NCBI RefSeq assembly: GCF_016127575.1
Contig: NZ_CP066018.1
Span: 3,360,001 to 3,392,000, forward strand
DNA: 32,000 bases
Origin: Cupriavidus necator
GTDB lineage: Bacteria; Pseudomonadota; Gammaproteobacteria; Burkholderiales; Burkholderiaceae
Direction: 5' to 3'
The notes under the pieces were generated by a model. That model saw only the letters and a list, made by a program, of their open reading frames with translations. It was not told the DNA's origin and did no database searches. This document shows, one piece after another, positions 5,486 through 28,722 of this stretch. Position 1 is the stretch's first letter, and every line of letters starts with the position of its first letter. The position numbers and the translations under genes are program-made.

Positions 5486-5972
5486 TTAGGAGTCCCGCTC
5501 CTTTTCCTTGCCGGTGCCGTCATCCCAAGGGCGGACCACCTTGGCCGAGCGTGGCGAGCCGCCCGAGATAATCCGTGCAGCGGCCGCTGACGGGCGAAGG
5601 ATCGAACGGACGATTTTCCGGTAGCGGTGCGCCACCTTCATGAGTGCCGGGAGCTTGATCCGCTTCACGGTGCGGACGTTCAGTGCTCCCTGCACGCCGG
5701 ATGGCCGCGATCAGCATGTGGCTCCGCGCCGCCAGCAAAGTCTCCTCAAATCGCGCCATTGCCTCTGACAGCAGATTCAACTCGACCTGGCTCTTGGCGT
5801 CGTCCGCCTTGCAAGCATCAATCTCGGTGTAGATGCGCTTGCCGAGCTCACGCACGAGAACAGGATCGAGCTGTCCTTGAGATGCTGCGTGACTCAGGTG
5901 AAACAGCAGGGTGATCAATCCGTTCGGAGTGGAACGGGGTGGCGAAGCTGTGCTCATTTGTTGCCCCAACAT
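5486..5972 (-). pseudogene. hypothetical helical protein with an apparent frame discontinuity near 5690-5700
   Basis: ATG 5972 has GGAGA 5 nt upstream. The N-terminal ~90 codons read well in the frame of ORF 5520..5993. Downstream of ~5695, high GC3 moves to the frame of ORF 5486..5695 (basic tail ...VKRIKLPALMKVAHRYRKIV...). The original frame becomes low-GC3, low-complexity text. Confidence 0.35.
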
Positions 5973-6155
5973 TGCAGTCTCCACATTTGGCAAGCCACTG
6001 GCTATAGGATCTGGAAAATCCCGGAGTTTTGGCTACATCAAAGAAAAGATTGACAGGCCATTGGCCCGCAACGATGCGTGCCGGCTTCGTATGCGTTTGG
6101 CTGTCACGACACGTGCGCCGCCTTGCAGCCGGTGCCCTTCGCAATGAGGCCTTTC

Positions 6156-6722
6156 TTATGTGGGAGTCGGGTACTGGGGCGTTCGTGTCCGTGCGTGCAG
6201 CCAGTCTCGTTCCAGGTGGATCAGGTTGAAAAGAAATGTGAGGTCCATCGGCTCGGCTTCGGCCGTAATCCATTGCTCGTGATCGACGTCTTGATAAATC
6301 AGCGTCAGGTAATAGCGGCCGTGAGGCAGTTTGAGGTAGACCAGGGGACCGTCCGAGACCAGCCGTAGCAGGCGGTTGCCCTGTTCGTTGACCAGGATCA
6401 GTGTGACGCCAGAAACGGGGTTGCCTTCTGAAGGATCCTGGAAGCTGAGCCGCACATTGAATTGGCCGGCGATAGCCTGCATTTGCCGCAAGCCTTCGCG
6501 CCCCATCCCGCCCGAGACATACCGGACGCCAGCGGATTGGTGGATTTCCGGCGGCGTTGGATGCGTTGCGAGGATCTGCGCGTGGAGAAGCGGTGCGGTA
6601 CCAAGGAGCAGCGCGGCGGCAGCTGCACGCTCAACCTTGCTGGCGCGCATTGCAAGTGATCGATGGTGGCTAACGGGAGCCTGGAGGTTTTCCTCGTGTC
6701 CACGCTGCAGCTTCGCGGTCAT
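6156..6722 (-). CDS. secreted CarboxypepD_reg-like (beta-sandwich) domain protein, paralog family member 1
   Basis: ATG 6722 is preceded by AAAGGAGGA and a hydrophobic signal-like segment ends in LLHAQ. The conserved YVSGG block and a G-x-V-x-L ... G-x-Y-x-L pattern are typical of carboxypeptidase regulatory-like domains. It is clearly paralogous to 25927-26406. Confidence 0.7.
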   Translation of the reverse strand: MTAKLQRGHEENLQAPVSHHRSLAMRASKVERAAAAALLLGTAPLLHAQILATHPTPPEIHQSAGVRYVSGGMGREGLRQMQAIAGQFNVRLSFQDPSEGNPVSGVTLILVNEQGNRLLRLVSDGPLVYLKLPHGRYYLTLIYQDVDHEQWITAEAEPMDLTFLFNLIHLERDWLHARTRTPQYPTPT

Positions 6723-7069
6723 GACAATCCTCCTTTGCGGCGCGCAAAATATCGCCCGTCTATTTTGAAGCGTAGGTCGCATGCGCACTGTCCCATTGAT
6801 GCATCGCAAACGAGATACCAAATACATTCAGCCGCCTTCCCCTGGGAGCAGTACTCGGTGGCGAACTCGCGGATCGCGCCGTCAGAGGTTTGTCCTGAGC
6901 CCATGTAACCGGCGATCGTGGCGGCATTGCCGGAACGGGCAATGCGCACGGACGAGTGCGTGTGCGCACACCCGGCCGTATTGCCTGAGCATGCGGTATC
7001 CCAGTTCTCGATGACCGCCGACAGCTTCATGTCGCGCACTGGCGTATATAGAAGTGGTGTCCCCTCCAT
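6719..7069 (-). CDS. hypothetical Cys-containing small protein (8 Cys, no signal peptide)
   Basis: This is the only ORF with coding-like GC3 between the ATPase and the downstream gene. Its TGA overlaps the ATG of 6156-6722 (ATGA), which suggests translational coupling. The start is uncertain (7069 or ATG 7030). Confidence 0.45.
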   Translation of the reverse strand: MEGTPLLYTPVRDMKLSAVIENWDTACSGNTAGCAHTHSSVRIARSGNAATIAGYMGSGQTSDGAIREFATEYCSQGKAAECIWYLVCDASMGQCACDLRFKIDGRYFARRKGGLS

Positions 7070-7158: not shown

Positions 7159-9873
7159 CTACAGCTTGCACCGCCGGCTCCACCATTTGTCCAGCTCCAC
7201 TGCAATCGTCAATGTGAGCGCGAGCGACAACAGTCCAGCCCACGTCGTAGCCGACACAGGTGTGAGACCGAGCGTGTCGCTTAGCCCGGGTATGTACATG
7301 GCAGCGATATGGAGTAACTGGGCAGCCAGTACGCTGACCACCAGCATCGGATTGGCGAAGACCCCCTGTCGGAATACGGAGTGGCGCTCTGAACGGCTAC
7401 TAAACGTCTGCAAGTTCTCAAACAGCACAAACAGCAGCAGCAATTGGTTGCGTGCCTCGTTTAGGGGATAGCCGCGGTCGAGCAGCCAGTAGAAAGTTGC
7501 AAATCCCCCTACGCCCATGACAAGAGTCGAATAGCAGATGCGGCGGATCATTACGCGGTCAAAGATCGGCTCCCGGGGCTTGCGCGCCGGATATGACAGT
7601 TCGTCGCCTTCCGCATGCTCGGTAGCCAGAGCCACATCCTGGATGCCATTGGTCACGAGGTTGAGCCACAGCAGCTGCACCGGCAGCAATGGCATTGGCA
7701 GGCCCAGGGGAATCGCCAGCAGAAACAGAACCATTTCGGCCGCGCCCGTGGAAACCACCATGAAGATGACTTTGCGAATGTTCGCGTACGCCACCCTGCC
7801 TTCATTTATGCCGTTGACGATGGACGCAAAGTTGTCATCGGTGAGGACTATGTCTGCGCTTTCCTTCGCTACTTCAGTTCCCTTTCGGCCCATGGCCACA
7901 CCGACGTGTGCGTGCTTGAGCGCAGGAGCGTCGTTGACGCCGTCGCCGGTGACCGCCACGAAATGGCCGGTTCTTGCCAGCGACAGGACAATGGACAGCT
8001 TCTGATCCGGACTGACGCGGGCGTAGATGCGCGCACGGCGGGTCAGTTGGTCGAGTCCGTGCGGCCCCTTGCTCTCGGCCTGGCGCACCTGCTCGCCCGT
8101 CACGACCTGGTCCGTGGTAAAGCGCAGCCCCGCCTGCGCGCCAATTGCGCTGGCTGTCAACGGATCGTCGCCAGTCACCATCGCCACGTCGATGCCGGCG
8201 CTGTAGCAGCGTCGGATAGCGTCCGGGACCTCCGGGCGAACCGGATCCTTCATGCCTGCCATTCCCAGAAAGGTCAGGTTGACCAGGTGCCCGTGTCCGT
8301 AGGACCCGTCCGGCTCCGCATCAATCGTGCCTTCTGCGAACGCCAGCACGCGTAGTCCTTGCGCGGCCAGCGCTGCCTTTTCCCGAAGCAGTCCTTCGCG
8401 CCGGATCGGCACGGCATGGCCGCGAACGTCCGCCTGGTCGCACATGGCAATCAGAGTCTCGGGCGCTCCCTTGACGAACACGCGGATCGTCTCTTCGTGC
8501 CGGTGGAACGAGGCCGCGTACCGCAGGTCTGGCTCATACGGGATACGGGCCACCAAGGGGTACCGCTGTCGGATCTCATTGGCTACGGTGCCCCCCTTGT
8601 GCGCTGCGGCCAGCAGCGCCACGTCCACGCTGTCCCCGGTGCCAGTCCAGCCATCACGCTCCCTGGATAGTTGGGCCTCGTTTGGCAGCGCCGCGGCCCT
8701 TAGCAGGGCCGCTACCCGCGTTCTCGCGTCATGGTCGGTGGTGCCGGCGGCGCGGATCGTGCAGTTGTCCAGATCGTGTCCGACGTCGCAGCAAAACGCC
8801 GTGCCGTCGGGAAGCCGGATATCGGTGACGACAAGCTCGTTCATGGTCAGGGTGCCGGTCTTGTCGGTGGCGATCATCGTGCAGGATCCAAGCGACTCCA
8901 CGGCGGGCATTTTGCGCACGATCACATGGGCCTTCGCCATCCGCCGCATGCTGATCGCCAGCGCCACCGAAATGGCGACGGGCAGTCCTTCGGGGATCGC
9001 GCTTACCGCCAGTCCGACCGACATCATGAACAGTTCGCGCAATGCCATGCCGCGCAGCATACCCACCAACACCAGCAACGCCACAGCCACGCCTACCGCC
9101 ACCGCGATCAGTCGGGAAAAACGCTGGAGCCTGAGAATCAAAGGTGGCTGCGAGATGGATTCGCGGCCCAGTTCCCGCGCAATCCGGCCAATTTGCGTGG
9201 CAGCGCCAGTTGCCACGACGATGCCGTGGCCCCTGCCGCGGAGCACCACCGTGCCGGCGAAGGTCAGGCACTGGCGGGCGCTCGCTGGGGCGTTGCTGGC
9301 ATCACATGCTGAGAGCTTGCGCACCGGCAGCGATTCGCCAGTCAGCAGGGATTCATCGCACTGCAGGTCAATGGCGGAGGTCAGTTCCAGGTCGGCCGGC
9401 ACTCGGTTGCCGGCTTCCAGCACCACCAGGTCGCCCGGTACCAGCGTACTTGCATCGATCTCCTGCTGGATGCCGTCCCGGATCACCGTGGCACGGGGCT
9501 GCTCCATCCTGCGCAGCGCCACGGCCGCCTTGTCGGCCGTATGCTCCTGTGCGGTGCCGATGACGCCGTTAATCAGCAGTACTGCCCCGATGAACAGTGC
9601 ATCCTTCAGGTCACCCAACGCGAGCGACACCGCTGCCGCGGCCAGGAGAATGTAAATAAGCGGACTGAGGAACTGGCGCAGAAACACCGCGGCCACCGAC
9701 CTAGGGGCCGCCTGAGGCAGCACATTGCGGCCCACCTCGGCCAGCCGCGCATTAGCCTGCGCGGTGGTCAGGCCGGGTGGGACATGTCCCGGATCGACGC
9801 GATCCCGGGTGCCGGAATGTTCTTCGTGAGATCGGGGGCGATCCGTTTGCAACGCGCTGGAGCGATTTTGCAT
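7159..9873 (-). CDS. P2-type cation-transporting P-type ATPase (Ca2+/Mg2+-ATPase-like)
   Basis: Motifs DKTGTLT, PEGLP, MVTGD and TGDGVNDAPAL are present. There is an N-terminal Cation_ATPase_N-like segment (GLTTAQANARLAEVGRNVLPQ) and 10 TM-type hydrophobic blocks. ATG 9873 is preferred over ATG 9987 because the longer form would start inside the promoter/FNR-box region. Confidence 0.92.
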   Translation of the reverse strand: MQNRSSALQTDRPRSHEEHSGTRDRVDPGHVPPGLTTAQANARLAEVGRNVLPQAAPRSVAAVFLRQFLSPLIYILLAAAAVSLALGDLKDALFIGAVLLINGVIGTAQEHTADKAAVALRRMEQPRATVIRDGIQQEIDASTLVPGDLVVLEAGNRVPADLELTSAIDLQCDESLLTGESLPVRKLSACDASNAPASARQCLTFAGTVVLRGRGHGIVVATGAATQIGRIARELGRESISQPPLILRLQRFSRLIAVAVGVAVALLVLVGMLRGMALRELFMMSVGLAVSAIPEGLPVAISVALAISMRRMAKAHVIVRKMPAVESLGSCTMIATDKTGTLTMNELVVTDIRLPDGTAFCCDVGHDLDNCTIRAAGTTDHDARTRVAALLRAAALPNEAQLSRERDGWTGTGDSVDVALLAAAHKGGTVANEIRQRYPLVARIPYEPDLRYAASFHRHEETIRVFVKGAPETLIAMCDQADVRGHAVPIRREGLLREKAALAAQGLRVLAFAEGTIDAEPDGSYGHGHLVNLTFLGMAGMKDPVRPEVPDAIRRCYSAGIDVAMVTGDDPLTASAIGAQAGLRFTTDQVVTGEQVRQAESKGPHGLDQLTRRARIYARVSPDQKLSIVLSLARTGHFVAVTGDGVNDAPALKHAHVGVAMGRKGTEVAKESADIVLTDDNFASIVNGINEGRVAYANIRKVIFMVVSTGAAEMVLFLLAIPLGLPMPLLPVQLLWLNLVTNGIQDVALATEHAEGDELSYPARKPREPIFDRVMIRRICYSTLVMGVGGFATFYWLLDRGYPLNEARNQLLLLFVLFENLQTFSSRSERHSVFRQGVFANPMLVVSVLAAQLLHIAAMYIPGLSDTLGLTPVSATTWAGLLSLALTLTIAVELDKWWSRRCKL

Positions 9874-9989
9874 GAGGTTTCCCAAGGTATGCCGGGCGCG
9901 GAGCCACGCGTGCACACCCTGGGCGTACGCCACGTGCGGCGGGCGGGTCCGGACACTGTTCAAGCGTAGGTACTCGCGTTTCCGCATGA

Positions 9990-10003
9990 TTGATCCGGAT
10001 CAA
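9990..10003. promoter_or_regulatory. perfect FNR/Anr box TTGATCCGGATCAA in a divergent promoter region
   Basis: 10/10 match to TTGAT-N4-ATCAA. A -10-like TAGACT (10025-10030) lies on the + side. A TACGCT (complement of 9963-9968) lies on the - side. Both sit about 21-22 nt from the box edge, which is class II geometry. Confidence 0.75.
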
Positions 10004-11456: not shown

Positions 11457-11515
11457 TCCAGGCCGGCGCCTGATATGTGCGCCTTTCGTTACGTCTGCCA
11501 AACCGGAATCACGTC

Positions 11516-12346
11516 ATGGACTTCAGAACCATCCTCGTCGACCTCAGCGAAGATTCTGCCCGGTCGGCACGCATTGAAACGGCCGCACGGGTTGCCGCGA
11601 AATTCGGCGGCAGCGTGGTCGGGCTGACTGCGACTGGAACAAACCTGGAGCCGTTTCGCGGGGCGGGCGAAGAAGCCGGACAATACGCGGCCCTTGCCGC
11701 CAGCCAGCTGCACAAGCTGGTTGCCGGTCACAAGGAGACCCTCGACACGCTGACCAGGCAAGTGTCGCCGGACATCCCCACCCGGCACATCATTATCGAC
11801 GCTGAATCCGGTTGGGCGCTTGCCGACGAGGGGCGTTTCGCCGATCTCATCCTTCCCGCACCGCCGTCGGCGGATGCCGATGTGCCGGCGCTGCTGGCCG
11901 GGGTTGCGGAGTATGCGATGCTCAATGCCGGACGGCCCATCCTGCTGGTGCCGGGCGCGGCCGGCCCGCGCTTTGGTGGTCATGTCGCGATCGCATGGAA
12001 CGGCGGTCGAGAGGCCGCGCGGGCAGTAGCGGACGCATTGCCGTGGCTCGCGCATGCCAGTGCTGTTACCGCCCTGGTGGTCAGCGCGGCTGCCATTGAC
12101 GAAGAGACCTGCCGTGACAGCGGGAACCGGCTGACAGCGTGGCTGGCCAGCCATGGCATCAATGCCGATCTGGTTGTCGGGGAGGGCGACCCCGACCACG
12201 TTCTGCCGCAACTTGCCTGCAAGGTACAGGCCGACCTGCTGGTCGCCGGCGGCTATGGCCGTTCCAGGCTGAAGGAGCTGGTGCTGGGTGGCACCACCCG
12301 CGCCCTGGTGCGTCAGTCATCGTTGCCAGTCTTCATGTCGCACTGA
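11516..12346 (+). CDS. tandem-domain universal stress protein (UspA family)
   Basis: There are two USP-like halves. The N-terminus MDFRTILVDL and C-terminus GGYGRSRLKELVLGGTTRALVRQSSLPVFMSH parallel the paralog at 27883-28722. Confidence 0.9.
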   Translation: MDFRTILVDLSEDSARSARIETAARVAAKFGGSVVGLTATGTNLEPFRGAGEEAGQYAALAASQLHKLVAGHKETLDTLTRQVSPDIPTRHIIIDAESGWALADEGRFADLILPAPPSADADVPALLAGVAEYAMLNAGRPILLVPGAAGPRFGGHVAIAWNGGREAARAVADALPWLAHASAVTALVVSAAAIDEETCRDSGNRLTAWLASHGINADLVVGEGDPDHVLPQLACKVQADLLVAGGYGRSRLKELVLGGTTRALVRQSSLPVFMSH

Positions 12347-12429: not shown

Positions 12430-12743
12430 TGTTGGCTTGCCGACATACCCGAGCCGCATCCTGAGCTAGTTTCCAACGTGCGTGGCTCAGCCGGTGTCGG
12501 CACACGGGTTGTGGCTCCGACGTCGCCGGTACCTGCGAATTTCCGGTTCTGAGCCGCATCTCGCTTCCCATGCCGTTGCCTTTCCGCGCACAAACTCTAT
12601 AGTCCATTGGCAAGGTAATAGTGACGAGAGCATGCCCCTGAAGGCGTCTTCATCCGCTCCGCAGGCGAGCAGCCTTGTCCAGAGTTCGCCCGACGATGGC
12701 TTTCGCCTGGTCGTGCGATTTCCGCGAGAGCAGGGGAACGGGC

Positions 12744-13391
12744 ATGACAAGGGTGATGATTGCGGATGACCATGCTGTGGTACGGGATGGCCTGCGGCAT
12801 ATCCTGGAACGGGCCGGTGTGTTCGAGGTCGTCGGCGAGGCGGCAGATGGTACACAAGTGCCCAGGATGGTACGGGAATGCACCCCGCAGGTGCTCCTGC
12901 TTGACCTTTCCATGCCTGGCAGGAGCGGGCTGGAACTGATCCGCTTGCTGCGCGGCGAGCACCCGGCCCTGCGCATCCTGGTCTTGACCATGCACGCCGA
13001 GGAGCAATACATCGTTCGTGCGTTCCAGGCTGGAGCGGCGGGCTATCTGACCAAGGAAAGCGCGGCTACGGAACTGGTGTCCGCCATCGGCCAGGTAGCC
13101 CGGGGCGGCACCTATGTGAGCCAGTCGATGGCCACGAAGCTGGCAAGCGGGCTGAAGGACCAGAGCGACGACCTGCCGCACCTGAGGCTCTCGGACCGCG
13201 AACTGGAAGTCTACCGGCGGCTGGTGCTGGGCGAGCCCATCACGGCGATCGCCACGGCACTGTGCGTCAGCGCCAAGACCGTGAGCACCTACAAGATGCG
13301 GCTGATGGAAAAAATGCAGATGCCCAATGAAGCCATGCTGTTGCGCTATGCCATGCGCAATCATCTGTTCGACGACGATGCGGACCTGTAG
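12744..13391 (+). CDS. NarL/FixJ (LuxR-type HTH) response regulator, canonical receiver
   Basis: The receiver has ADD (VMIADDH), the phospho-acceptor context VLLLDLSMPG, LVLT and YLTK. The C-terminal HTH is LSDRELEVYRRLVLGEPITAIATALCVSAKTVSTYK. ATG 12744 has AGGGGA upstream. No histidine kinase is in the window. Confidence 0.9.
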   Translation: MTRVMIADDHAVVRDGLRHILERAGVFEVVGEAADGTQVPRMVRECTPQVLLLDLSMPGRSGLELIRLLRGEHPALRILVLTMHAEEQYIVRAFQAGAAGYLTKESAATELVSAIGQVARGGTYVSQSMATKLASGLKDQSDDLPHLRLSDRELEVYRRLVLGEPITAIATALCVSAKTVSTYKMRLMEKMQMPNEAMLLRYAMRNHLFDDDADL

Positions 13392-13430: not shown

Positions 13431-13829
13431 CTATCGCCCCGAAGTCGCAGCCAGCCCGGCCAGGGTCTGGCGCAGCGCATCGAGTTCCAGCGTCTTGTCA
13501 AAGCAGTAGCTCCCGCCTGCCTTCAGGCAGGCGCGGCGCAGCGGCGGGCCGAGGTTGTCGGCCAGCACGATCACGATCGAATCCGGTAGCGTCGACCTCA
13601 GCGTCCTGACCTCCTGGAGCGCATGAGCATAGCCCGTGCCCAGGCTGATCAGGACGACGTCGGGGCGATGACGCAGGAGCGGGGCAAGTTCCGTGGCTGC
13701 GCTGGCGCCCGCACCCGCGACACGGATGCCAGGCATTCGCCCAAGCAGGCCGAGCTGCCTGGTTCGGATCGCATTGGCATGCTCGAGCAAGTACACGGTA
13801 AGCAGGCGGGCAGGATTGCGGTCTGGCAT
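13431..13829 (-). CDS. stand-alone receiver-like protein lacking the phospho-acceptor Asp (aspartate-less receiver)
   Basis: 132 aa with a receiver-like alternating pattern. It has YLLEHA in place of the acidic DD pair and PDVVLISLG in place of the DxxxLD acceptor. IVIVLAD and the conserved Lys context (YCFDK) are retained. Confidence 0.6.
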   Translation of the reverse strand: MPDRNPARLLTVYLLEHANAIRTRQLGLLGRMPGIRVAGAGASAATELAPLLRHRPDVVLISLGTGYAHALQEVRTLRSTLPDSIVIVLADNLGPPLRRACLKAGGSYCFDKTLELDALRQTLAGLAATSGR

Positions 13830-13906
13830 GGTCCTAGTATCGCGGCTCCCCTTGCGGTGGCAAATCAGGGGCGGCTGAGAGTCGCGTCAGGGGGGCAGAA
13901 GGCACT

Positions 13907-13923
13907 GTCAGTGATCCCTGACA
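13907..13923 (-). promoter_or_regulatory. 17-bp palindromic motif GTCAGTGATCCCTGACA upstream of the receiver-like gene
   Basis: 15/17 identical to 19421-19437. An additional GTCAGGG half-site lies at 13886-13892, 21 bp away. The motif sits 84 nt upstream of ATG 13829. Confidence 0.5.
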
Positions 13924-14112
13924 TGCGCGCGCACGCCTTGCCGGCTTGGCAGGAGCGAGTACGACAGTTTCGACAAGCAAGCCGGCTGGGTGGCGTCTGC
14001 AACCGAGGTTGTCGGCTACCGGCTTGTCTCAGGAAAGCGGCCGCCGCCGGCAGTGCGCCTGAAGGCGATCGAAATTGCCAACGCCTTGCGCGCGCGTGCC
14101 GATTGCGATGCC

Positions 14113-16809
14113 TCAACCCTGCGTGCGAACGCTGGCATTCTCCTCGCGCAGCGCAAGGTGCAGACTGACACCGTCGGCGCCGGCCGCGATGCTGGTCCTG
14201 AAGCCGCAGGTGCGCGCCAGCGTCAGCATGGCCCGGTTGTGCTGCATGGTGCAGCCCACCAGCGCGCCGATGCCCTTTTCGCGCGCGTAGCGGATCAGCT
14301 TGTCGAGCAGCAGCTTTCCCAGCCCTTGTCCCTTGCAGTCCGAGCGCACGGCGATACCGAACTCTGCCTGGACATTGTCCGGATCCGCAACCGCCCGGAC
14401 CTCTCCCAGGATGGAAGCCTGGCCACATGCATCGGTAGTCGTCGCGATGAACGCCATCTCGCGCGCGTAGTCGATCTGCGTGAGCCTTGCCAACTGGCTG
14501 TGTTCCGGCTCGCGGAACGTGCAGAAGTAGCGTGCATGGATATCTTCCGGCGTCAGCTGGCGGAAGTACGCCTGGTAGGCTGCCTCGTCGGTCGGGCGCA
14601 CGGGCCGCAGCACAATGGTGCGGCCGTCCTGCTCGACGCGTTCCTCCAGCGCTTCCGGATAGGGTTGGATGGCCAGCCGCGTGCCCGGCGCCGGCGCCTT
14701 GATGGCGATGCGGGCATCGAGCGCGATGACGCCTGTCGCGCTCGCCAGCAGGGGATTGATATCGAGTTCGGCGATCTCGGGAATGTCGCAGACCAGGCGT
14801 GATACCTGTACCAGTACCTGGAGCAAGCCGTCCCCGTCGACGCCCGGGTGTCCGTGCCAGCCTTCCAGCAGGCGCCCGATGCGGGTGCGCGACACCAGGT
14901 CTTGCGCGAGCAGCGCGTCGAGCGGCGGCAGCGCAACCGCATGGTCGCCGATGTGTTCGGTGTTGACGCCGCCATGGCCGAACAGCAAGACGGGGCCGAA
15001 CACGGGATCGGTGGCGGCGCCGACGATCAGCTCGAAGCCATCGCCGTGCCCGGCCATCGGCTGGACGGTGAAGCCCTCCAGCCGTGCCTCCGGGGCTTGC
15101 TGCCAGATCCGCTCGAGCATGGCGCTGCCGGCGCTGCGCACCGCGGCGGCATCGGCGAGGTCCAGTGCAACGCCGCCCGCGGCAGACTTGTGCGTGATGT
15201 CCGGGGACAGGATCTTGAGCGCTACCGGATATCCGATCCGTGTGGCCTGGCCGACAGCCTCATCGACGCTTGCCGCGGTCCGGGTCGCGACCACGGGGAC
15301 GCCGTAGGCGGCCAGCGCGGCCTTGGCCTCCGGTTCGGTCAGCAACGCCCTGCCGGCGCGCAGGGCATTGCCGATGATCGTGCGCACCTGTTCCTTGTCG
15401 GCCTGCGTGTACGTGTCGTCTGCGGGCGGCGTGCGCATCAGCAATTGCTGGTTCCTGTGGTATTCGCAGGCCTGCAGGAAGCCGCGCACTGCCCGCTCCG
15501 GGGTATCGAAGGTCGGCACGCCGGCATGCCGGCACAAGCGGCGTGCCTGCAGCACGGCATCCGCCCCGAGCCATGCGGTCAGCAGCGGCTTGCCGCCCGA
15601 CGGCGCGCTGACGAGCGCGGCTGCGATCTCGGCGGCTGGCACGATGGCCGTGGGCGCATGGATCATCAACACAGCGTCAACCTCGGGCGCCTCGCACAGG
15701 ATGGCGTAGGCCTGCAAGTAGCGCTCGACGGGCGCGTCGCCGATGATGTCGATTGGATTCGCGCGCGGCCAAGTGGCGGGCAGCACCAAGTCCAGCCGGG
15801 CCAGGGTCTGGTCTGACAGTCGGGCCAGGGTCCCGCCGGCATCCGCCAGCGCATCCGTCGCCATCACGCCGGCGCCGCCGCCATTGGTCAGGATGGCGAG
15901 GCGCTCGCCGCGCAGCCCTTGCATGCGGGCAAGCATCTCGACGGCGTCGAACAGGCCCTCGGTGCTGTCCACGCGCAGCATGCCGGCACGCCGGATGGCG
16001 GCGTCGTAGACGTCGTCGGCACCCGCCATGGCGCCTGTGTGGGACGCGGCGGCGCGTGCAGCCTGCGCCGAGCGTCCGCCCTTGACGATCAGCACCGGCT
16101 TGTTGCGGGCGGCGGCGCGTGCCGCAGACATAAACTTTGCGCCATGGCGGATCGCTTCCACGTAGAGCAGGATCGCATGCGTCCCGGCGTCGCCGGCGAG
16201 GTAGTCGAGCACGTCGGCTGCGTCCACATCGGCACTGTTGCCCAGCGAGATGAAATGGGAAAAGCCGATCTGCCGCGAGCGCGACCAGTCCAGCACGGCG
16301 GTGGCCAGCGCGCCGGATTGGGTGGCGAATGCCAGCTTGCCTTGGCGGGCCGCGCCGGGCGCGAAGCTGGCATTGAGGCTGATTCCCGAAGCGATCAGCC
16401 CGACGCAGTTTGGCCCGAGAATCCTGAGCAGATGGGGCCGCGCCGCGTCCAGCATGGCCTGCCGCAGGGCGCCTGCGGCACTGTCCTCAGGACCCTCGAA
16501 GCCGGCGGTCAGCACGATAGCCGCGCGCGTGCCGGCGGCGCCAAGCTCGGCGATGAGCCCCGGGATGGTGGGCGCGGGCGTGCATAGCACCGCCAGGTCC
16601 GGCGGTGCCGGCAACGCGCCGACGCGCGCGTAACAGGGCTGGCCCGCCAGCGTCGCATACTTCGGGTTGACCAGGTACAGCTGGCCGGTGAAGTCGCCCG
16701 CGGACAGGTTCGCCAGCACCGTTGCCCCCACGCTATGCGGCCGCAGCGTCGCGCCGATGAGCGCGACCGAGCGCGGACGGAACAGGGCATCGAGATTACG
16801 GACAGTCAT
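14113..16809 (-). CDS. pat: Pat/YfiQ-type protein acetyltransferase (NDP-forming acyl-CoA synthetase-like domains fused to a C-terminal GNAT)
   Basis: 898 aa. It has an N-terminal CoA-binding/succinyl-CoA-synthetase-like region (SVALIGAT...YLVNPK), an ATP-grasp region and a C-terminal GNAT (CKGQGLGKLLLDKLIRYAREKG). Confidence 0.9.
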   Translation of the reverse strand: MTVRNLDALFRPRSVALIGATLRPHSVGATVLANLSAGDFTGQLYLVNPKYATLAGQPCYARVGALPAPPDLAVLCTPAPTIPGLIAELGAAGTRAAIVLTAGFEGPEDSAAGALRQAMLDAARPHLLRILGPNCVGLIASGISLNASFAPGAARQGKLAFATQSGALATAVLDWSRSRQIGFSHFISLGNSADVDAADVLDYLAGDAGTHAILLYVEAIRHGAKFMSAARAAARNKPVLIVKGGRSAQAARAAASHTGAMAGADDVYDAAIRRAGMLRVDSTEGLFDAVEMLARMQGLRGERLAILTNGGGAGVMATDALADAGGTLARLSDQTLARLDLVLPATWPRANPIDIIGDAPVERYLQAYAILCEAPEVDAVLMIHAPTAIVPAAEIAAALVSAPSGGKPLLTAWLGADAVLQARRLCRHAGVPTFDTPERAVRGFLQACEYHRNQQLLMRTPPADDTYTQADKEQVRTIIGNALRAGRALLTEPEAKAALAAYGVPVVATRTAASVDEAVGQATRIGYPVALKILSPDITHKSAAGGVALDLADAAAVRSAGSAMLERIWQQAPEARLEGFTVQPMAGHGDGFELIVGAATDPVFGPVLLFGHGGVNTEHIGDHAVALPPLDALLAQDLVSRTRIGRLLEGWHGHPGVDGDGLLQVLVQVSRLVCDIPEIAELDINPLLASATGVIALDARIAIKAPAPGTRLAIQPYPEALEERVEQDGRTIVLRPVRPTDEAAYQAYFRQLTPEDIHARYFCTFREPEHSQLARLTQIDYAREMAFIATTTDACGQASILGEVRAVADPDNVQAEFGIAVRSDCKGQGLGKLLLDKLIRYAREKGIGALVGCTMQHNRAMLTLARTCGFRTSIAAGADGVSLHLALREENASVRTQG

Positions 16810-16864
16810 GGCTGGCCCTCATGGCAACCGGCGGCAACCCTCCCGACAGGGCCCGGTCGGGAAG

Positions 16865-17518
16865 TCAGAGATTCACCTGGATGATGTTCGATACTTCGCT
16901 CACCCCAGGCGCCGCCCAGGCGGCTTCGGAAGCGGCCTCGCGCTCGGCCCAGCTGCGCAGGCTACCGCGCAGCGTCACCACGCCGTCCTTGACGTCGACC
17001 GCGACATGGGTCGCGTCGTCCGCCGCCTGGCGCTCGATGGCCCTGGCGATCCGTTCCTTCACGTCGTGGGCCGCGATCGCAGGCTGGACCACGATGGCGT
17101 TGGCTACACTGACCACGCCGTACAGGCCGCCCACCGCGTGCTCGGCGGCCAGGCGCTGGTAGTTCCAGTCGACCGTGCCGGTCAGCGTGACGCAGCCGTC
17201 CTCGACCATCACCTGGATGCGATCCGCGGGCAGCACCGAGGTCCACGCCAGGATGTTGCTCGCTGCGCGTGCGATGTCCGCGTCCGTGCGCTGCGCGTCA
17301 TCGGGCAGGCGCACGTCGATTTCGACGGCCAGGCCTTTCACGCCGGGCACGCGCCTGACGGCCTTCTCGGCAGCGTACTTGCCGGCATGGCTGCTGAGAT
17401 GGCCGGTCAGCGTCACCACGCCGTCCTTGACCTGGACACCGACCTCGGTGGCATCGACGGCCGGGTCCCAGGCCAGTTCCTCGACCACATGCTGCTTGAG
17501 CTGGATATCGCCTTTCAT
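16865..17518 (-). CDS. triple BON-domain protein (OsmY-like but without signal peptide)
   Basis: There are three repeats of the BON pattern (V.V.V.DGVVTL.G.V......A...A....GV..V.N.I.V). ATG 17518 has AGGAGA 8 nt upstream. Confidence 0.85.
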   Translation of the reverse strand: MKGDIQLKQHVVEELAWDPAVDATEVGVQVKDGVVTLTGHLSSHAGKYAAEKAVRRVPGVKGLAVEIDVRLPDDAQRTDADIARAASNILAWTSVLPADRIQVMVEDGCVTLTGTVDWNYQRLAAEHAVGGLYGVVSVANAIVVQPAIAAHDVKERIARAIERQAADDATHVAVDVKDGVVTLRGSLRSWAEREAASEAAWAAPGVSEVSNIIQVNL

Positions 17519-17612
17519 GTTGGTTGTCTCCTGTTTGCCTGGCGCCCTCGGGCGCGATCGCGGCGCGTGCCGCCTGCTCCGTGCGTGCCAGCGCGGGCAC
17601 GCGGCATCGGCG

Positions 17613-18260
17613 TCACGGCCGCGTTTCCAGCTGATCAATGACCGCCGAGATGCCCGGCGCCGACCATACGGCACCGATGGCGGCGCGGCGGTCGGCCAGC
17701 GAATCCACGTGGCCGCTCAGCGTGGCGGTGCCGTTCTTGACCTTGACGCTGATATGGTGGGCCTCGCGCACGGCATGGCGGAGCAGCGCCTCTTCGATGC
17801 GCTTCTCCACGTCGGGGGGCGCGGTCTTCTCATTCATCCGGATGTTGTTGACGACGCCGATCACGCCGCGCAACTGGCTGACCGTGCGTTCGGCCAGCTT
17901 TTTCTGATAGCCCCAGTCGACGTTGCCAGACAGCGTGACCCAGCCGCGCTCGACGCGGACCTTGATGACGTCCGAGGGCACATGCACGTGCCATTGCAAC
18001 GCACCGCGAGCCGCCTCGGCAATGGCCTCGTCGAGGAAGGCGCCGGGCGGATGCACGTCGAGCTTGACGACGACCGCTCGTACGCCTGAAATGCGTTCCG
18101 CGGCGCGCTCGGCGGCGAGCTTCTCCGCATAGCTGGACAGGTGTCCGTCCAGCGTGACAATGCCCTCATGGACCTCGACGCCGATGGACGCCGCGTCAAT
18201 CGCCGGATCCCAGTCGAGTTCCTCGGTGACGTCCTTCTGGATCTGATGATCTGTTTTCAT
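17613..18260 (-). CDS. triple BON-domain protein, tandem paralog of 16865-17518
   Basis: It has the same three-BON architecture. ATG 18260 is the first ATG, with GAAGAGG upstream. No N-terminal hydrophobic signal is present. Confidence 0.85.
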   Translation of the reverse strand: MKTDHQIQKDVTEELDWDPAIDAASIGVEVHEGIVTLDGHLSSYAEKLAAERAAERISGVRAVVVKLDVHPPGAFLDEAIAEAARGALQWHVHVPSDVIKVRVERGWVTLSGNVDWGYQKKLAERTVSQLRGVIGVVNNIRMNEKTAPPDVEKRIEEALLRHAVREAHHISVKVKNGTATLSGHVDSLADRRAAIGAVWSAPGISAVIDQLETRP

Positions 18261-18328
18261 GCTTGGCCTCTTCAAAGGCAGGGCGCCGCAAGCGGCGCCA
18301 CGGGTTGGCCCCGGTGCGTCTCTGGGCG

Positions 18329-18793
18329 CTACGTTTGCGATAGAGCCTGTGCGCTGCCAGAACGCTCTCGTTCCTGCGCCTTGCGCACCAGCGAAAACAG
18401 CATGCCCCAGTCGGTTGCGAGAGCGGCGAACAGATCATCGAGCGCAACCACTCCGGTCACTGCCTCGCCATCGAGCACCGCCAGGCGTCGTACGCCGTGC
18501 GTCAGCATCAACTGCATTGCCTCTGCGACAACGGCATCCCGTTGGATCGCCACCAGGCCACGCGTCATCACCTCGACCACGTCGGTCCGGCATGGATCCG
18601 CACCGGTGGCTGTCGCACCGATGACGATGTCCCGGTCCGTGACCATGCCGACCGCGCGCGTCCCTGCCGGTGAGTTCTCTGTCACGATCAGCGCACCGAC
18701 GTGGCGGTCCCGCATCTGGACGGCAGCTTCCTGCAGGGTGCAGGACAGCGGGACATGCACGGCTTTCGCTGAGCAAATATCCTGGACTAGCAT
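18329..18793 (-). CDS. CBS-pair (Bateman) domain-only protein
   Basis: There are two CBS-like repeats (VGALIVTE...GMVTDRDIV; VRRLAVLDGEAVTGVVALDDL). ATG 18793 has AAGGAGA 6 nt upstream. Confidence 0.85.
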   Translation of the reverse strand: MLVQDICSAKAVHVPLSCTLQEAAVQMRDRHVGALIVTENSPAGTRAVGMVTDRDIVIGATATGADPCRTDVVEVMTRGLVAIQRDAVVAEAMQLMLTHGVRRLAVLDGEAVTGVVALDDLFAALATDWGMLFSLVRKAQERERSGSAQALSQT

Positions 18794-18821
18794 CCCGGTC
18801 TCCTTTTTTGCGCAACGTTGC

Positions 18822-19244
18822 CTAACGGACGGTAATGCGTTGCTGGCTTGAGCTTTCCTTCTTGGGCAGCACCAGGCGCAGCACGCCGTCCTGGAAGCTG
18901 GCATCGATCTTTTCCGTGTCGATGTTGCCGTCCAGCGTAAAGGCACGCTGCATCGAGCCGCTGTAGCGCTCCTGGCGGATCACGCGGTCGCCTTCTTTTA
19001 CCTCGGAAGCTTTCTCGAGCTTGGCGGAGATCATCACAGTCCCACGGTCTACGCTGACGTTGATGTCTTCCTTCTTCACGCCTGGCAGGTCGGCGGTAAT
19101 GGTGAAGCTGCTGTCGGACTCGGCCACATCGACCTTGAATGGCAGCTCGGTGTCTGGCCCGATCCGCCAATTGCGTAGCATGCTCTGCAGCATGTCGCCG
19201 AGCGGTTCGATCGAGAACGGGTCGTAGCGCTTGATGTTGCTCAT
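18822..19244 (-). CDS. Hsp20/alpha-crystallin family small heat-shock protein
   Basis: Alpha-crystallin core text: PFKVDVAESDSSFTITADLPGVKKEDINVSV...ERYSGSMQRAFTLDGNIDTEKIDASFQDGVLRLVLPKK. AGGAGA lies upstream of the ATGATG start (19247/19244). Confidence 0.9.
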   Translation of the reverse strand: MSNIKRYDPFSIEPLGDMLQSMLRNWRIGPDTELPFKVDVAESDSSFTITADLPGVKKEDINVSVDRGTVMISAKLEKASEVKEGDRVIRQERYSGSMQRAFTLDGNIDTEKIDASFQDGVLRLVLPKKESSSQQRITVR

Positions 19245-19314
19245 CATGGTCTCCTGGATGACGGCGCCGTGCGCGCCGTGTTTTCTTACTTTGGCAAGCC
19301 GGGGCGGTTGCGGT

Positions 19315-19328
19315 TTGCTTTGCATCAA
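19315..19328 (-). promoter_or_regulatory. FNR box (reads TTGATGCAAAGCAA on the minus strand) upstream of hsp20
   Basis: 9/10 match to TTGAT-N4-ATCAA, 71 nt upstream of the hsp20 start in the hsp20/fnr divergent intergenic region. Confidence 0.65.
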
Positions 19329-19420
19329 ACGCCGGCACATTGCCCCGACTGCTTGCACGGGATAAGGGCATGACGTCACATGCGCCAGCTTGGACAGCCA
19401 GGGCGTTCGGCATGACCGGC

Positions 19421-19437
19421 GTCAGGGAACCCTGACA
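19421..19437 (+). promoter_or_regulatory. 17-bp palindromic motif GTCAGGGAACCCTGACA between hsp20 and fnr
   Basis: Perfect 7-bp inverted repeat GTCAGGG/CCCTGAC with a 2-nt spacer. An extra CTGACA half-site lies at 19453-19458, 21 bp downstream. It is 15/17 identical to 13907-13923. Confidence 0.5.
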
Positions 19438-19610
19438 AGTGACGCTGCATTTCTGACACGCAACTCAGCGCAGCCTTCTAGGCGCGGAGCGCGGGCAGGC
19501 CAATACTTCAGTCAAACACATCGCGGCGCGCACGAATATGCGGTCCGCCAGACGACACGGGTGAAGGCGAGGGTCGGGATAAGGGAAAGGCCGGCAGGCT
19601 GGAGACAACC

Positions 19611-20405
19611 ATGTTTGACTTGCATACTGAAGCTGATGCTGTTTGTGACGCCCCCAACATGTCCGTCGCGCTCTCCAGGCGTGAGGATGAGACGTTTGCG
19701 GAGCCGGCGCCGGATCCCGCGCGGGCGCGGTGCACAACTTGCATGATGCGGAACATCTGCATGGCCGCCAGCCTGGAGGCCGGCGAAATGGCCCGCCTGG
19801 ACTCCGTCGTGCGGAGCTGGCGTTCGGTCAAGCAGGGCGAACGGCTGTACCGGGCGGGCGACCCGTTCCGCAGCCTCTATGCGGTCCGCGTCGGCTCGTT
19901 CAAGACCGTGGTGGCGCCGGAGCGGGGCAAGGAGACCATCTCCGGCTTCTACATGGCCGGGGACTCAATCGGCATGGACGGCGTTTGCCAGGAAACCCAT
20001 AACTGCGATGCGATTGCCCTGGAAGACAGCGTGGTCTGCGTGATCCCGTTTCACCAGCTCGAGGCGCTATGCCGCGAGATCAAGCCGCTGCAACGCCACC
20101 TGCACAAGATGTTCAGTGCCGAGATCGTGAGGGAATCGCGCCAGATGATGCTGTTAGGCAACAACATGTCCGCCGAGCAGCGCGTGGCGGCATTCCTGTT
20201 GAACGTCTCGGCACGCTACCGCGAACGCGGCTATTCGGCCACGTCCTTTGTGCTGCGCATGACTCGTGAAGACATCGGCAGCTTCCTTGGCATGACCCTG
20301 GAAACCGTGAGCCGGACCTTGTCCAAGTTCCAGCAGGAAGGGCTGCTGACAGTGCAGGGCAAGTCCATCGAGCTGCTCAATCTGGACGCCCTGGACGCTC
20401 GCTAG
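19611..20405 (+). CDS. fnr: FNR/Anr-type oxygen-sensing CRP-family transcription regulator
   Basis: The N-terminal Cys cluster C-X2-C-X5-C ([11 protein letters not shown]) plus the fourth Cys in VVCVIPF matches the E. coli FNR C20/C23/C29/C122 pattern. There is a cNMP-like barrel and a recognition helix [11 protein letters not shown] (E--SR). ATG has GGAGA upstream. Confidence 0.93.
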
Positions 20406-25409: not shown

Positions 25410-25874
25410 ATGTACCGCCGCATTCTCCTAGCCCTCGATGGCAGCCGTTCATCCTTGAATGCCCTGGAGCAGGCCGTGTCGATGGCGCTGACCACCGACG
25501 CCGAGGTCAGCGCCATGTTCGTCGTCGACGACAGCGACCTGTTCTTCGAGGTCAGCCCGGGTGACCGGCACTGGCTGATGGCCGACATCATTGCCTATGG
25601 CAAGCAGGTGCTGGCTCGTGCCGGCGAGCGCTTCAGCGCCGCCGGCGTGCGCTGGAGCAGCAGGTTGGCCGAGACGCCCGGCACCCCTGCGAAGATTGCC
25701 GAGGCGATCATCGCGGAAGCGGACCACTGGAGCGCGGACCTGATCGTCATGGGCACACACGGCCATCGCGGCGTGCGGCGCATGGTGCTGGGCTCGGTCT
25801 CGGAGCACGTGGTCAGCAAGACGGTTCGCCCCGTGCTGCTCGTTCGGCAGCAGTCGCGCGGCGATACGCCCTGA
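25410..25874 (+). CDS. universal stress protein (single USP domain)
   Basis: MYRRILLALDGS...ADLIVMGTHGHRGVRRMVLGSVSEHVVSKTVRPVLLVR, including the ATP-binding-type G-x2-G-x9-G-S motif. Confidence 0.92.
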   Translation: MYRRILLALDGSRSSLNALEQAVSMALTTDAEVSAMFVVDDSDLFFEVSPGDRHWLMADIIAYGKQVLARAGERFSAAGVRWSSRLAETPGTPAKIAEAIIAEADHWSADLIVMGTHGHRGVRRMVLGSVSEHVVSKTVRPVLLVRQQSRGDTP

Positions 25875-26406: not shown

Positions 26407-26652
26407 GCCTGCCGCTCGGACGTGTCGCCGCGGGCACGACACCGCGCAAGCAAGTTCGCGGCGGTTCAGGGACGATCCCGCGAAAGAGAAGCGACGGAAC
26501 TGGAAGGGGAAGAAGAAGCGCTCAGGCTTCGTTCGGGGACAAGCAGGCGAGCCGCTCGGCGTGGGCAGGCCTGAATCCGCGAGCCGCAACCCCTGCGCGA
26601 AGACTGCCGATGCGCGCGCGACCAGCGGCGGTTGGAGCGCGGTACCGCGGCT

Positions 26653-26666
26653 TTGACACGTATCAA
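26653..26666 (+). promoter_or_regulatory. FNR box TTGACACGTATCAA
   Basis: 9/10 match. A -10-like TACGCT lies at 26688-26693. It is 85 nt upstream of the USP start. Confidence 0.7.
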
Positions 26667-26750
26667 CAGCAGTTGCGCCGGTTGCCCTACGCTGCATTTA
26701 ACCAGTCCAGACCCGAGTCGCCACAGGCTCCCATCGCCGGAGAAACCGCT

Positions 26751-27203
26751 ATGTACCAGCGCATCCTTGTCGCCATGGACGGCGGCGCCGCATCGGAACT
26801 TGCCCTGGAACAGGCCATGATCATCGCGCGCGCCGCCAACGCCGAAGTGGAGGTGGTCCATGTGGTCGATGACCGCAGCCCGTTTCTGGATGCCAGCAAT
26901 CTGGATCCGGTGAGATTGATAGAGGACCTCACGACGGCGGGGCAAAGCGTTCTCGCTGCCGCCTCCGGCCGGCTTGCCGCAGCGGGTATTCGCCACGTAA
27001 CGCGGCTGCTCGGTAAGCCTATGGTCGAGGGCGACGTTGCTGCCACGATCGCTGCCGAAGCCAATGGCTGGGGCGCTGATCTGGTTGTGATGGGTACGCA
27101 CGGCCGCCGGGGAGTGCGGCGACTCGTCATGGGCAGCGTCGCGCGAAGCGTGATCAACCTGGCCGTCGCGCCCGTCCTGCTTCTCCGCGCCGAGGAAGCG
27201 TAA
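26751..27203 (+). CDS. universal stress protein (single USP domain)
   Basis: MYQRILVAMDGG...ADLVVMGTHGRRGVRRLVMGSVARSVINLAVAPVLLLR. GGAGA lies 7 nt upstream. Confidence 0.92.
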   Translation: MYQRILVAMDGGAASELALEQAMIIARAANAEVEVVHVVDDRSPFLDASNLDPVRLIEDLTTAGQSVLAAASGRLAAAGIRHVTRLLGKPMVEGDVAATIAAEANGWGADLVVMGTHGRRGVRRLVMGSVARSVINLAVAPVLLLRAEEA

Positions 27204-27882: not shown

Positions 27883-28722
27883 ATGGACTACGCAACGATC
27901 CTGGTTCATCTCGATGCCGGCCGCCGCGTGTACGACCGGCTGCACCTCGCGACCCGGCTGGCGCTGGAGTTTCATTCCACGCTGGTTGGCCTGCTAGCCG
28001 TCGGCAAGCCGGATCCCACCGCCGTGCGCTACCTGGTGGACGGTGACCGCAATCTTGCCTCTTACACCGAATGGCGGCATCAGGTCGGCGAGCGGGCCCG
28101 TCACGCCCTGATGGGCGCAACGGACGAGGTAACCGTCATTACGGAATGGCGGGCGCCGGACTGGGCCACGGCGGCAACGGTCCAGGCAGAGGCGCATCGG
28201 GCGGATCTTGTCATCCTCGGACAGCACGATCCCACTGATGAAGCCGCCTACGCCGAGCCCGGCTTTGTTGAATCCATTGTGCTGGGATGCGGGCGGCCGG
28301 TGCTGGTGGTTCCGTATGCGGGCCGGTTCCCGAGCGTTGGCAAGAACATCATGGTGGCGTGGAACGGCAGCCGCGAGTCGGCGCGGGCCATCCGCGATGC
28401 GCTTCCGCTCCTGCAGCGCGCGGGCACTGTGGAGGTGGTCTCGTGGACACCGTCTGGGGTTCTGAAGGGGACATGGGTTTCGCCGCCTCAGCATGCCGTG
28501 GACTGGCTGGGTCGGCATGGCGTGGCGGTGCAGCTTTGCACGTTTGGAGCGGAAGACGGCGAAGACGTCGGCCAGATGTTACTCTCACACGCCGCGGACC
28601 GAAATGCTGACCTGATCGTCATGGGGGCCTACGGGCACAGCCGGGTGCACGAGCTGGTCCTTGGCGGTGTCACCCGCACGTTGCTTGAGTCGATGACAGT
28701 GCCGGTCCTGATGTCGCACTGA
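27883..28722 (+). CDS. tandem-domain universal stress protein
   Basis: MDYATILVHLDAG ... GAYGHSRVHELVLGGVTRTLLESMTVPVLMSH. It is a paralog of 11516-12346. Confidence 0.9.
   Translation: MDYATILVHLDAGRRVYDRLHLATRLALEFHSTLVGLLAVGKPDPTAVRYLVDGDRNLASYTEWRHQVGERARHALMGATDEVTVITEWRAPDWATAATVQAEAHRADLVILGQHDPTDEAAYAEPGFVESIVLGCGRPVLVVPYAGRFPSVGKNIMVAWNGSRESARAIRDALPLLQRAGTVEVVSWTPSGVLKGTWVSPPQHAVDWLGRHGVAVQLCTFGAEDGEDVGQMLLSHAADRNADLIVMGAYGHSRVHELVLGGVTRTLLESMTVPVLMSH

Follow-up and report, generated by a model that had tools for sequence, protein, structure and literature searches.

A Pat-type lysine acetyltransferase with retained synthetase histidines behind an FNR-type box in a predicted low-oxygen island of Cupriavidus

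Introduction

Why does the gene of a Pat-type lysine acetyltransferase stand last in a row of stress-protein genes, behind a putative binding site of the oxygen-sensing regulator FNR? The question is raised by positions 14113-19244 of a stretch of 32,000 nucleotides from Cupriavidus necator (contig NZ_CP066018.1, positions 3,360,001 to 3,392,000; this whole stretch is referred to as the window), which is GC-rich (GC 0.58-0.71) and whose closest DNA is carried by Cupriavidus plasmids of 1.2-1.7 Mb. The original prediction, made from the nucleotide sequence and its open reading frames (ORFs), had read this part as an hsp20-CBS-BON-BON-pat operon under an FNR box, in which Pat could modify universal stress proteins (USPs) or other neighbouring proteins when oxygen falls and the CBS-pair protein could sense adenylates. 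The persistence of aerobes is based on low-oxygen islands such as the lxa (low-oxygen-activated) locus of Burkholderia cenocepacia and the Anr and DosR regulons. In the analysis reported here the observations behind the prediction were confirmed and its interpretation was partly supported. The most unusual feature of the locus, which the prediction had missed, is a pair of retained synthetase histidines in a Pat that appears to be wired to FNR.

Results

All five genes are located on the minus strand in the order hsp20, CBS pair, BON1, BON2 and pat, as read from the sequence and the ORF list, and are separated by intergenic gaps of exactly 28, 68, 94 and 55 nt. A Shine-Dalgarno-like sequence precedes each of them, and every domain that had been named from the letters was recovered by Pfam. 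The five genes and the elements at their head are as follows.

18822..19244, minus strand: hsp20, small heat-shock protein of 140 amino acid (AA) residues (Pfam HSP20, 3e-22)
18329..18793, minus strand: CBS-pair protein, 154 AA (Pfam CBS, two stretches, 1e-19)
17613..18260, minus strand: BON1, triple-BON protein, 215 AA (Pfam BON, three stretches, 1.3e-48)
16865..17518, minus strand: BON2, triple-BON protein, 217 AA (Pfam BON, three stretches, 4.8e-45)
14113..16809, minus strand: pat, predicted class I-alpha / type I lysine acetyltransferase, 898 AA (Pfam and PDB alignment)
19315..19328, minus strand: FNR/Anr box TTGATgcaaAGCAA (TTGATGCAAAGCAA), one mismatch to TTGAT-N4-ATCAA
19288..19293, minus strand: -10-like hexamer CAAAGT within the conserved block CTTGCCAAAGTAAGAA, about 41 nt downstream of the FNR box (read from sequence and alignment)
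19611..20405, plus strand: divergent fnr/anr-type regulator (Pfam cNMP_binding and HTH_Crp_2; motif C-X2-C-X5-C)

Pat carries the Pfam domains CoA_binding(_2), Succ_CoA_lig, Ligase_CoA_2 and ATP-grasp_5 in residues 12-703 and Acetyltransf_1/3 (GNAT) in residues 732-871. As had been proposed, it is of the Pat/YfiQ type, aligning end to end with PatZ in PDB 9it0 (E = 5.5e-213, query residues 1-890 with chain residues 1-885). E816 of Pat is aligned to PatZ E809, the GNAT glutamate for which a catalytic role has been described (bioRxiv 10.1101/2024.11.12.623305), and the acetyl-CoA P-loop (R/Q-x-x-G-x-G/A) reads KGQGLG in Pat and KGLGLG in PatZ. These alignments identify the protein as a full-length Pat/PatZ-type (class I-alpha / type I) lysine acetyltransferase. 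Pfam detected no cNMP_binding domain in it, and its resemblance to the cAMP-regulated type III enzymes is functional only.

The synthetase-like part of the protein departs from what has been described for this family. Opposite a four-residue deletion in PatZ, which has no histidine there, the loop AASHTGAMAG of Pat (H257) aligns with AASHTGSIAG of the ADP-forming acetyl-CoA synthetase (ACD) ACD1 (4xyl), and likewise with ASSHTGSLAG and AMSHTGALMG of solved ADP-forming ligases. A second histidine, H540 in THKS, is also present, and both H257 and H540 align with the motifs of ACD1 (4xyl_A/B), 2csu and 8wzu, as does a YxE glutamate with ACD1 and other solved ADP-forming ligases. Both histidines are invariant in 121 sequences (median identity 59%) and in all 86 loci. 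To place this clade in the wider family, the 150 best 50%-identity cluster representatives were taken from approximately 10,800 that scored below E = 1e-30. Among these 150, 131 have both the synthetase-like part and the GNAT domain, of which 76 keep the histidine and 55 have a degenerate or deleted loop. A histidine loop that is invariant where it is kept and decayed where it is lost argues that the loop is used. Loss of the critical histidine, to which the catalytic death of the domain is ascribed and which is a reported property of the characterised enzymes and not a formal criterion, is not a trait of this Pat; judged by alignment, its family membership stands and the generalisation of the lost histidine fails.

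The putative FNR box at the head of the stretch (19328..19315) lies 71 nt before the hsp20 start codon. For that start, the original choice of ATG 19244 is preferred because it alone is conserved in relatives, a second ATG at 19247 not being kept. Boxes with at most one mismatch occur five times in the window (0.29 expected), a number that was reached in none of 100 shuffles, and boxes with at most two mismatches occur 12 times (4.9 expected). All five of the former are intergenic within the island, the other four, at 9990, 22210, 25338 and 26653, also lying upstream of island genes, and no further FNR-like box with at most two mismatches is present in 14113-19230. In an alignment of the fnr-hsp20 spacer from six Cupriavidus genomes, the box at 19315-19328 and the block CTTGCCAAAGTAAGAA are kept between diverged flanks. 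The divergently encoded regulator (19611-20405) bears C-X2-C-X5-C, the Cys motif of oxygen-sensing FNR proteins. If the CAAAGT hexamer within the block acts as the -10 element, the centre of the box would be set at about -40.5/-41.5, the geometry of a class II FNR promoter.

Natural variants within the genus separate pat from the genes before it. The nucleotides 14113-19400 match C. necator C39 plasmid p1 and Cupriavidus sp. P-10 with 93.3% identity over 99%; all five genes are present in C. necator C39 and in strain KK10, and the match to strain P-10 (99% of the stretch at 93% identity) is one at nucleotide level. In C. oxalaticus X32, BON1 is reduced to its first and last codons, and in C. 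neocaledonicus STM6070 a deletion extends from mid-CBS to the end of BON1; these are the two species in which BON1 is deleted. In C. pinatubonensis LMG 23994, hsp20 through BON2 are lost, with none of hsp20, CBS, BON1 and BON2 found in the 13.7 kb examined; pat starts approximately 150 nt after the conserved FNR-box promoter, and an inverted scrap of the CBS-BON1 gap is left behind. The junction in this species (L002, 590-1081) consists of the hsp20 start codon fused at an ATGATGA/ATGATC microhomology to an inverted BON1 start and CBS-BON1 gap, followed by the pat leader.

No Cupriavidus variant has lost pat, which always follows the same promoter, divergent from fnr, and is the last and the most persistently kept gene of the five. 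Upstream genes have decayed or been lost in three species while pat stays, so that the five genes do not form an obligate unit. The constancy of pat behind its promoter supports FNR-driven pat expression and argues against a tight five-protein machine. The layout claimed by the original prediction is exact, but its operon is not a conserved five-gene unit. Two more Cupriavidus Pat proteins, with 61-63% identity, are encoded among USP, CBS, BON, Hsp20, FNR/CRP and PAS-kinase/NarL genes.

Beyond this locus, a scan of one genome per species gave 80 loci with Pat relatives, mostly of 50-60% identity, with which the window proteins were compared by tblastn. Such relatives in other Proteobacteria are often encoded next to genes of the island's families. 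In 13 of these 80 loci the 400 nt upstream of pat hold an FNR box with no more than one mismatch, compared to 0.58 expected from composition-matched simulations, and the downstream regions hold one in two. Neighbourhoods were counted in 63 loci from other genera that have 6 kb or more of flanking sequence. In 39 of them one or more island marker families are present within 10 kb of pat, and in 20 two or more (USP 22, P-type ATPase 16, FNR/CRP 15, beta-CASP 8, BON 7, Hsp20 7 and PhaC 6), and a USP gene lies no more than 1.5 kb from pat in 13. Seven loci have divergent tandem-USP/pat pairs 130-343 nt apart, with an FNR-type box (at most two mismatches) in the gap of five, and three have same-strand pat-usp pairs with gaps of 28, 37 and 123 nt. 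Given these cross-genus neighbourhood and FNR-box statistics, chance adjacency of pat to island genes was rejected.

Four Pats without the histidine have as neighbours Acs, another AMP-binding enzyme, a deacetylase or a nitroreductase, and none of them lies in a hypoxia island, an anecdotal count of four. One such pat (L087) is divergent from an acetyl-CoA synthetase gene and another (L089) adjoins a histone-deacetylase-family gene; these are classical acetylation partners and, anecdotally, contrast with the hypoxia-island setting of the histidine-retaining clade. In four other loci (L014, L016, L019 and L024; Alcaligenaceae, Pollutimonas, Polaromonas and Burkholderiaceae) phaC is located immediately upstream of pat on the same strand, with an FNR box 82-90 nt before pat in L019 and L024. 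This recurrent PhaC-Pat pairing hints at a link to polyhydroxybutyrate and acetyl-CoA flux.

A published proteome offers a parallel. In B. cenocepacia H111, a strain without lxa, the 'Protein acetyltransferase' BCAM2710 was up 19.5-fold at 0.5% O2 (PMC3759415); the same protein is named 'putative acetyl-CoA synthetase' elsewhere (PMC3862766). From this double annotation, BCAM2710 would be a Pat-type protein.

Whether the five genes share one transcript depends on the signals between them, which are listed here with those of the fnr-hsp20 spacer.

18282..18299, minus strand: GC hairpin GGCGCCG-cuug-CGGCGCC followed by CCUGCCUUUG, in the CBS-BON1 gap; in four genomes and unique in the window
19261..19279, minus strand: hairpin ACGGCGC-gcacg-GCGCCGT in the hsp20 5' leader; five pairs kept across relatives, two changed on both sides
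19420..19437, strand not assigned: second palindrome TGTCAG-N6-CTGACG in the fnr-hsp20 spacer; kept in all six Cupriavidus genomes

A terminator scan of the minus strand between the five genes gave no terminator-like site, and none of the intergenic gaps folded better than shuffled sequences. The post-CBS hairpin lies 29 nt past the CBS stop codon, and in strain KK10 a variant of greater length is found; the hairpin has a weak U tract, and its gap folds no better than shuffles (z = -0.54). A repeated element was considered for this hairpin and rejected in view of its single occurrence in the window. It may possibly act as an attenuator or as an RNA stabiliser that raises the abundance of hsp20-CBS over the distal genes. 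A sigma-54-like sequence, TGGCAC-N5-GAGCA, seen by eye in the BON1-BON2 gap, was dropped, its GG being lost in C. necator C39. The common strand, the short gaps and the lack of a canonical terminator are those of a single operon, but the post-CBS hairpin and the loss of upstream genes in three species are not.

The hairpin in the hsp20 leader leaves the Shine-Dalgarno sequence unsequestered, and on the plus strand it reads as a terminator-like site (stem, then GTTTTCTT). At the gathering threshold no Rfam family was found in the window, nor did 13800-19650 match any at E <= 1; for lack of such a match the hairpin is not a known ROSE-type thermometer or riboswitch. The palindrome TGTCAG-N6-CTGACA is perfect at 13906-13923 and has one mismatch at 19420-19437, both copies being conserved in relatives, and matches the window three times at up to two mismatches (1.0 expected). 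The perfect copy precedes the small ORF after pat by approximately 80 nt, beside a promoter-like site at 13863-13836. The palindrome is a candidate site for the NarL-type regulator encoded at 12675-13391.

That small ORF (13431-13829, minus strand, 132 AA), directly after pat, has a weak receiver match (Response_reg, E = 0.0017). It may be a pseudo-receiver, because Ser replaces the expected phospho-accepting Asp (PDVVLISLG). In C. basilensis, a comparable gene for a small receiver-like protein (L086, 3521-3871) adjoins a PAS kinase and a NarL-type regulator. Among the proteins encoded upstream of pat, the N-termini of BON1 and BON2 are hydrophilic, and BON1 has no signal peptide, as judged by eye; both are therefore probably cytoplasmic. 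When the CBS protein was compared to solved structures, M. tuberculosis Rv2626c was the second-best match (E = 9.5e-11).

The island around the five genes encodes a SulP transporter, a DoxX protein, a P-type ATPase, a beta-CASP RNase, a NarL-type response regulator, thymidine-phosphorylase-family, PNPOx-like and TPM-domain proteins, an alanine dehydrogenase, PhaC and a short-chain dehydrogenase of acetoacetyl-CoA-reductase type. The six USP domains that had been counted before were found in four genes, as tandem pairs at 11477-12346 and 27883-28722 and as single domains at 25410-25874 and approximately 26751-27203. The last gene (mechanical ORF 26610-27203, plus strand) has its USP domain in residues 48-193 and a likely start near 26751, approximately 85 nt after the FNR box at 26653-26666. 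The NarL-type regulator (12675-13391) matches DevR/DosR (3c3w, E = 2.7e-23) among many NarL-type regulators; DosR was not among the alignments listed for its HTH part, where an equivalent of DosR K182 was sought. A perfect FNR box, TTGATCCGGATCAA, is located at 9990-10003 between the divergent P-type ATPase gene (7159-9987, minus strand) and the beta-CASP RNase ORF; since it overlaps the mechanical TTG start of the latter, the real RNase start must be further downstream. The segment 4500-8000 has a lower GC content (0.58-0.59, approximately 0.65 elsewhere) and holds ORFs without a Pfam match (4509-4985, 5520-5993 and 6156-6827) and weak FNR-like boxes at 6388 and 6796.

The island thus has clustered genes for USPs, a small heat-shock protein, BON proteins, a transporter, polyhydroxyalkanoate (PHA) metabolism and regulators that share an Anr/FNR-like motif, and in this it resembles lxa when compared with Table 4 of PMC3721108. 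By analogy, the island is a newly recognised member of the lxa kind of low-oxygen island, on a Cupriavidus megaplasmid, and its induction by hypoxia is predicted.

Discussion

The reading that we favour, with moderate confidence, is that the stretch forms an FNR-dependent low-oxygen stress transcription unit in an lxa-like island on a Cupriavidus megaplasmid, with Pat as its metabolic arm at the acetyl-CoA node. On a fall in oxygen, the product of the adjoining fnr gene would, in its Fe-S form, bind the box centred approximately 41 bp upstream of the start site and activate the transcription of hsp20 and the CBS-pair gene, and read-through past the conserved stem-loop would extend the transcript to the genes of the two probably cytoplasmic BON proteins and to pat. 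Pat would then be the metabolic arm of this response, acting at the acetyl-CoA node. As to its function, the most cautious assumption is the established activity of the family, by which Pat would acetylate the active-site lysine of AMP-forming acyl-CoA synthetases such as Acs, switch these enzymes off and thus spare ATP when respiration stalls; possibly, it also turns acetyl-CoA, ADP and Pi into acetate and ATP. The small heat-shock, CBS and BON proteins would be co-induced protective or sensory proteins and not obligate partners of Pat.

Several observations weigh against this proposal. Co-transcription and FNR dependence are both inferred; the conserved GC hairpin after CBS, with its weak U tract, could end part or all of the transcription, and promoters within the coding sequence upstream of pat are possible. 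Class II geometry is a prediction that takes CAAAGT as the -10 element. Genes for AMP-forming acyl-CoA synthetases lie near histidine-retaining Pat in seven of 83 loci, which is the background level. With regard to an active synthetase domain, Pat scores below the cut-off of NCBIfam TIGR02717 (acetate--CoA ligase alpha; 452.6 vs 567.15 bits), and we know of no Pat-type protein with demonstrated synthetase activity. A 2021 review holds the synthetase-like domain of type I and II enzymes to be inactive for want of the critical histidine (PMC8556138).

The same gaps can be read as borders between two or more transcription units, in which FNR would drive a short and abundant hsp20-CBS transcript that stops at the hairpin, other promoters would serve BON-BON-pat or only pat, and pat would merely be co-located in the island. 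The post-CBS stem with CCUGCCUUUG directly 3' of CBS in four genomes is consistent with this division, the gaps of 68, 94 and 55 nt (about 99 nt in two relatives) could follow a promoter in upstream coding sequence, and in many relatives of Pat the upstream FNR box belongs to pat itself and not to a shared operon. However, neither the terminator scan nor the folding of the hairpin gap, with its weak U tract, points to a terminator, no FNR-like box precedes the distal genes within 14113-19230, and the rearrangement in C. pinatubonensis puts pat itself closely behind the promoter in question, the other Cupriavidus variants all keeping gene order and orientation. We consider such a division distinctly unlikely. 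What Pat acts upon is a separate matter, for which the original prediction had offered the island's own proteins: hypoxia-induced Pat would acetylate the USPs or the Hsp20, CBS and BON proteins, and the CBS pair would feed in adenylate status. Its precedent is real, in that the cAMP-dependent MSMEG_5458 of Mycobacterium smegmatis has a USP as physiological substrate (PMC8556138), but the enzyme is of another type, belonging to the type III enzymes with a cAMP domain and not to the Pat/PatZ type, and the Pat studied here has no cNMP domain. The nearness of USP genes to pat in 13 of the 63 loci, including the divergent and same-strand pairs, also agrees with this model, although shared FNR regulation explains adjacency equally well. 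The BON, CBS and Hsp20 proteins are apparently cytoplasmic, judging by their N-termini, so that Pat could reach them; as partners in the operon they are nevertheless dispensable in three Cupriavidus species. The model as a whole appears rather unlikely to us, with circumstantial support, from the recurrent USP-pat adjacency, for Pat acetylation of the island USPs, and with adenylate sensing by the CBS pair as a plausible component.

The retained histidines suggest a further possibility for the FNR-dependent unit, which we hold tentatively and regard as somewhat unlikely. Pat of this clade might be bifunctional, the N-terminal part acting as an ADP-forming acetyl-CoA synthetase that yields ATP and acetate under oxygen limitation and the GNAT domain blocking the ATP-costly return by acetylating Acs, which together would do the job of AckA/Pta in B. 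cenocepacia lxa. The alignment of all three motifs with solved ADP-forming ligases and the invariance of H257 and H540 are in line with such turnover, yet the histidines could instead be regulatory, through phospho-His or ligand sensing, and the score under the NCBIfam equivalog cut-off speaks for caution. The split of the 131 two-part representatives suggests that use preserves the loop and disuse lets it decay, and even PatZ, itself inactive, retains the binding of acetyl-CoA, phosphate and ATP at the ACD sites (bioRxiv 10.1101/2024.11.12.623305). The contrast with the histidine-less Pats outside hypoxia islands rests on four loci. In Table 4 for the 50-gene lxa locus, AckA/Pta are listed and Pat is not; no match to the acetate kinase or phosphotransacetylase family was given by any ORF that was scanned in the 32-kb window, the range for which this absence holds. 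Taken one step further, a large Pat clade might consist of two-in-one enzymes under FNR control in hypoxia islands, with the synthetase half making ATP from acetyl-CoA and the GNAT half locking the direction through acetylation of Acs and perhaps of USPs; this generalisation, drawn from sequence, seems doubtful to us.

The FNR-dependent unit with Pat as its metabolic arm links, as a prediction at the level of transcription, FNR to a Pat-type acetyltransferase, a link that recurs across genera, and the natural deletion series marks pat as the retained gene. The protein is an exception, at the sequence level, to the accepted view that the synthetase-like domain of Pat has no catalytic histidine. 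An active domain would make sense of the fusion with GNAT and would give cells a new source of ATP for surviving anoxia, and a clade of two-in-one enzymes would overturn the textbook view of the large domain of type I/II enzymes as an inactive acetyl-CoA sensor only. Were the domain inactive, the invariant histidines would still call for explanation. Our literature searches and term look-ups found no description of the hsp20-CBS-BON-BON-pat combination, in agreement with what the original prediction had stated, and no paper that joins 'ADP-forming acetyl-CoA synthetase' with 'GNAT'.

Comparison with known systems

With Salmonella Pat and E. coli PatZ (YfiQ) the Cupriavidus enzyme shares end-to-end homology, the same four-domain order, the GNAT glutamate and the CoA-binding G-x-G. 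It differs from them in keeping H257, whereas the enteric enzymes have no synthetase histidine, the critical residue not being conserved in SePat according to Thao and Escalante-Semerena (PMC3195501) and PatZ having the four-residue loop deletion, and its gene differs in setting, behind an FNR box in a hypoxia-type island. ACD1 (4xyl) and the fused ligase 8wzu have in common with it the xSHTGxxAG loop of the alpha part, the beta-part histidine in SPxxxHKS and the CoA-binding/ligase-CoA/ATP-grasp order. Unlike Pat, which is known here from its sequence alone, these ADP-forming enzymes have demonstrated activity and no GNAT domain.

MtPat (Rv0998) and MsPat (MSMEG_5458) of mycobacteria are, like the Cupriavidus protein, lysine acetyltransferases tied to a hypoxia response, a tie that is inferred from the genes in our case. 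Unlike it, they are of type III, with a cyclic-nucleotide-binding domain and allosteric control by cAMP in place of a synthetase-like domain. We know of no demonstration that MtPat or MsPat is under transcriptional control by FNR. The mycobacterial enzymes acetylate a USP and the DosR regulator, the latter as described in PMC5861037.

The lxa papers and a 2025 hypoxia review do not mention an acetyltransferase or protein acetylation for proteobacterial islands. The account of lxa (PMC3721108) describes, as is found here, a hypoxia-type island with an Anr/FNR-like motif and multiple USPs, and the two have in common Hsp20, a sulphate transporter, a cation ATPase, a metal-dependent RNase, PhaC, an acetoacetyl-CoA reductase and regulators of the CRP/Anr and two-component (NarL-type) kinds. 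They differ in that Table 4 of that account gives an acetate kinase and a phosphate acetyl/butyryl transferase and no Pat-type enzyme, whereas in Cupriavidus a pat gene closes the hsp20-CBS-BON-BON stretch and the closest DNA is on the plasmids of 1.2-1.7 Mb. We take the 'phospholipid-binding' proteins BCAM0280 and BCAM0307 of lxa to be BON proteins, the term BON being absent from PMC3721108. Sass and co-workers (2013, PMC3721108) themselves liken lxa to the mycobacterial DosR regulon, which, like the Cupriavidus island, contains a small heat-shock protein, a CBS-pair protein (Rv2626c) and USPs.

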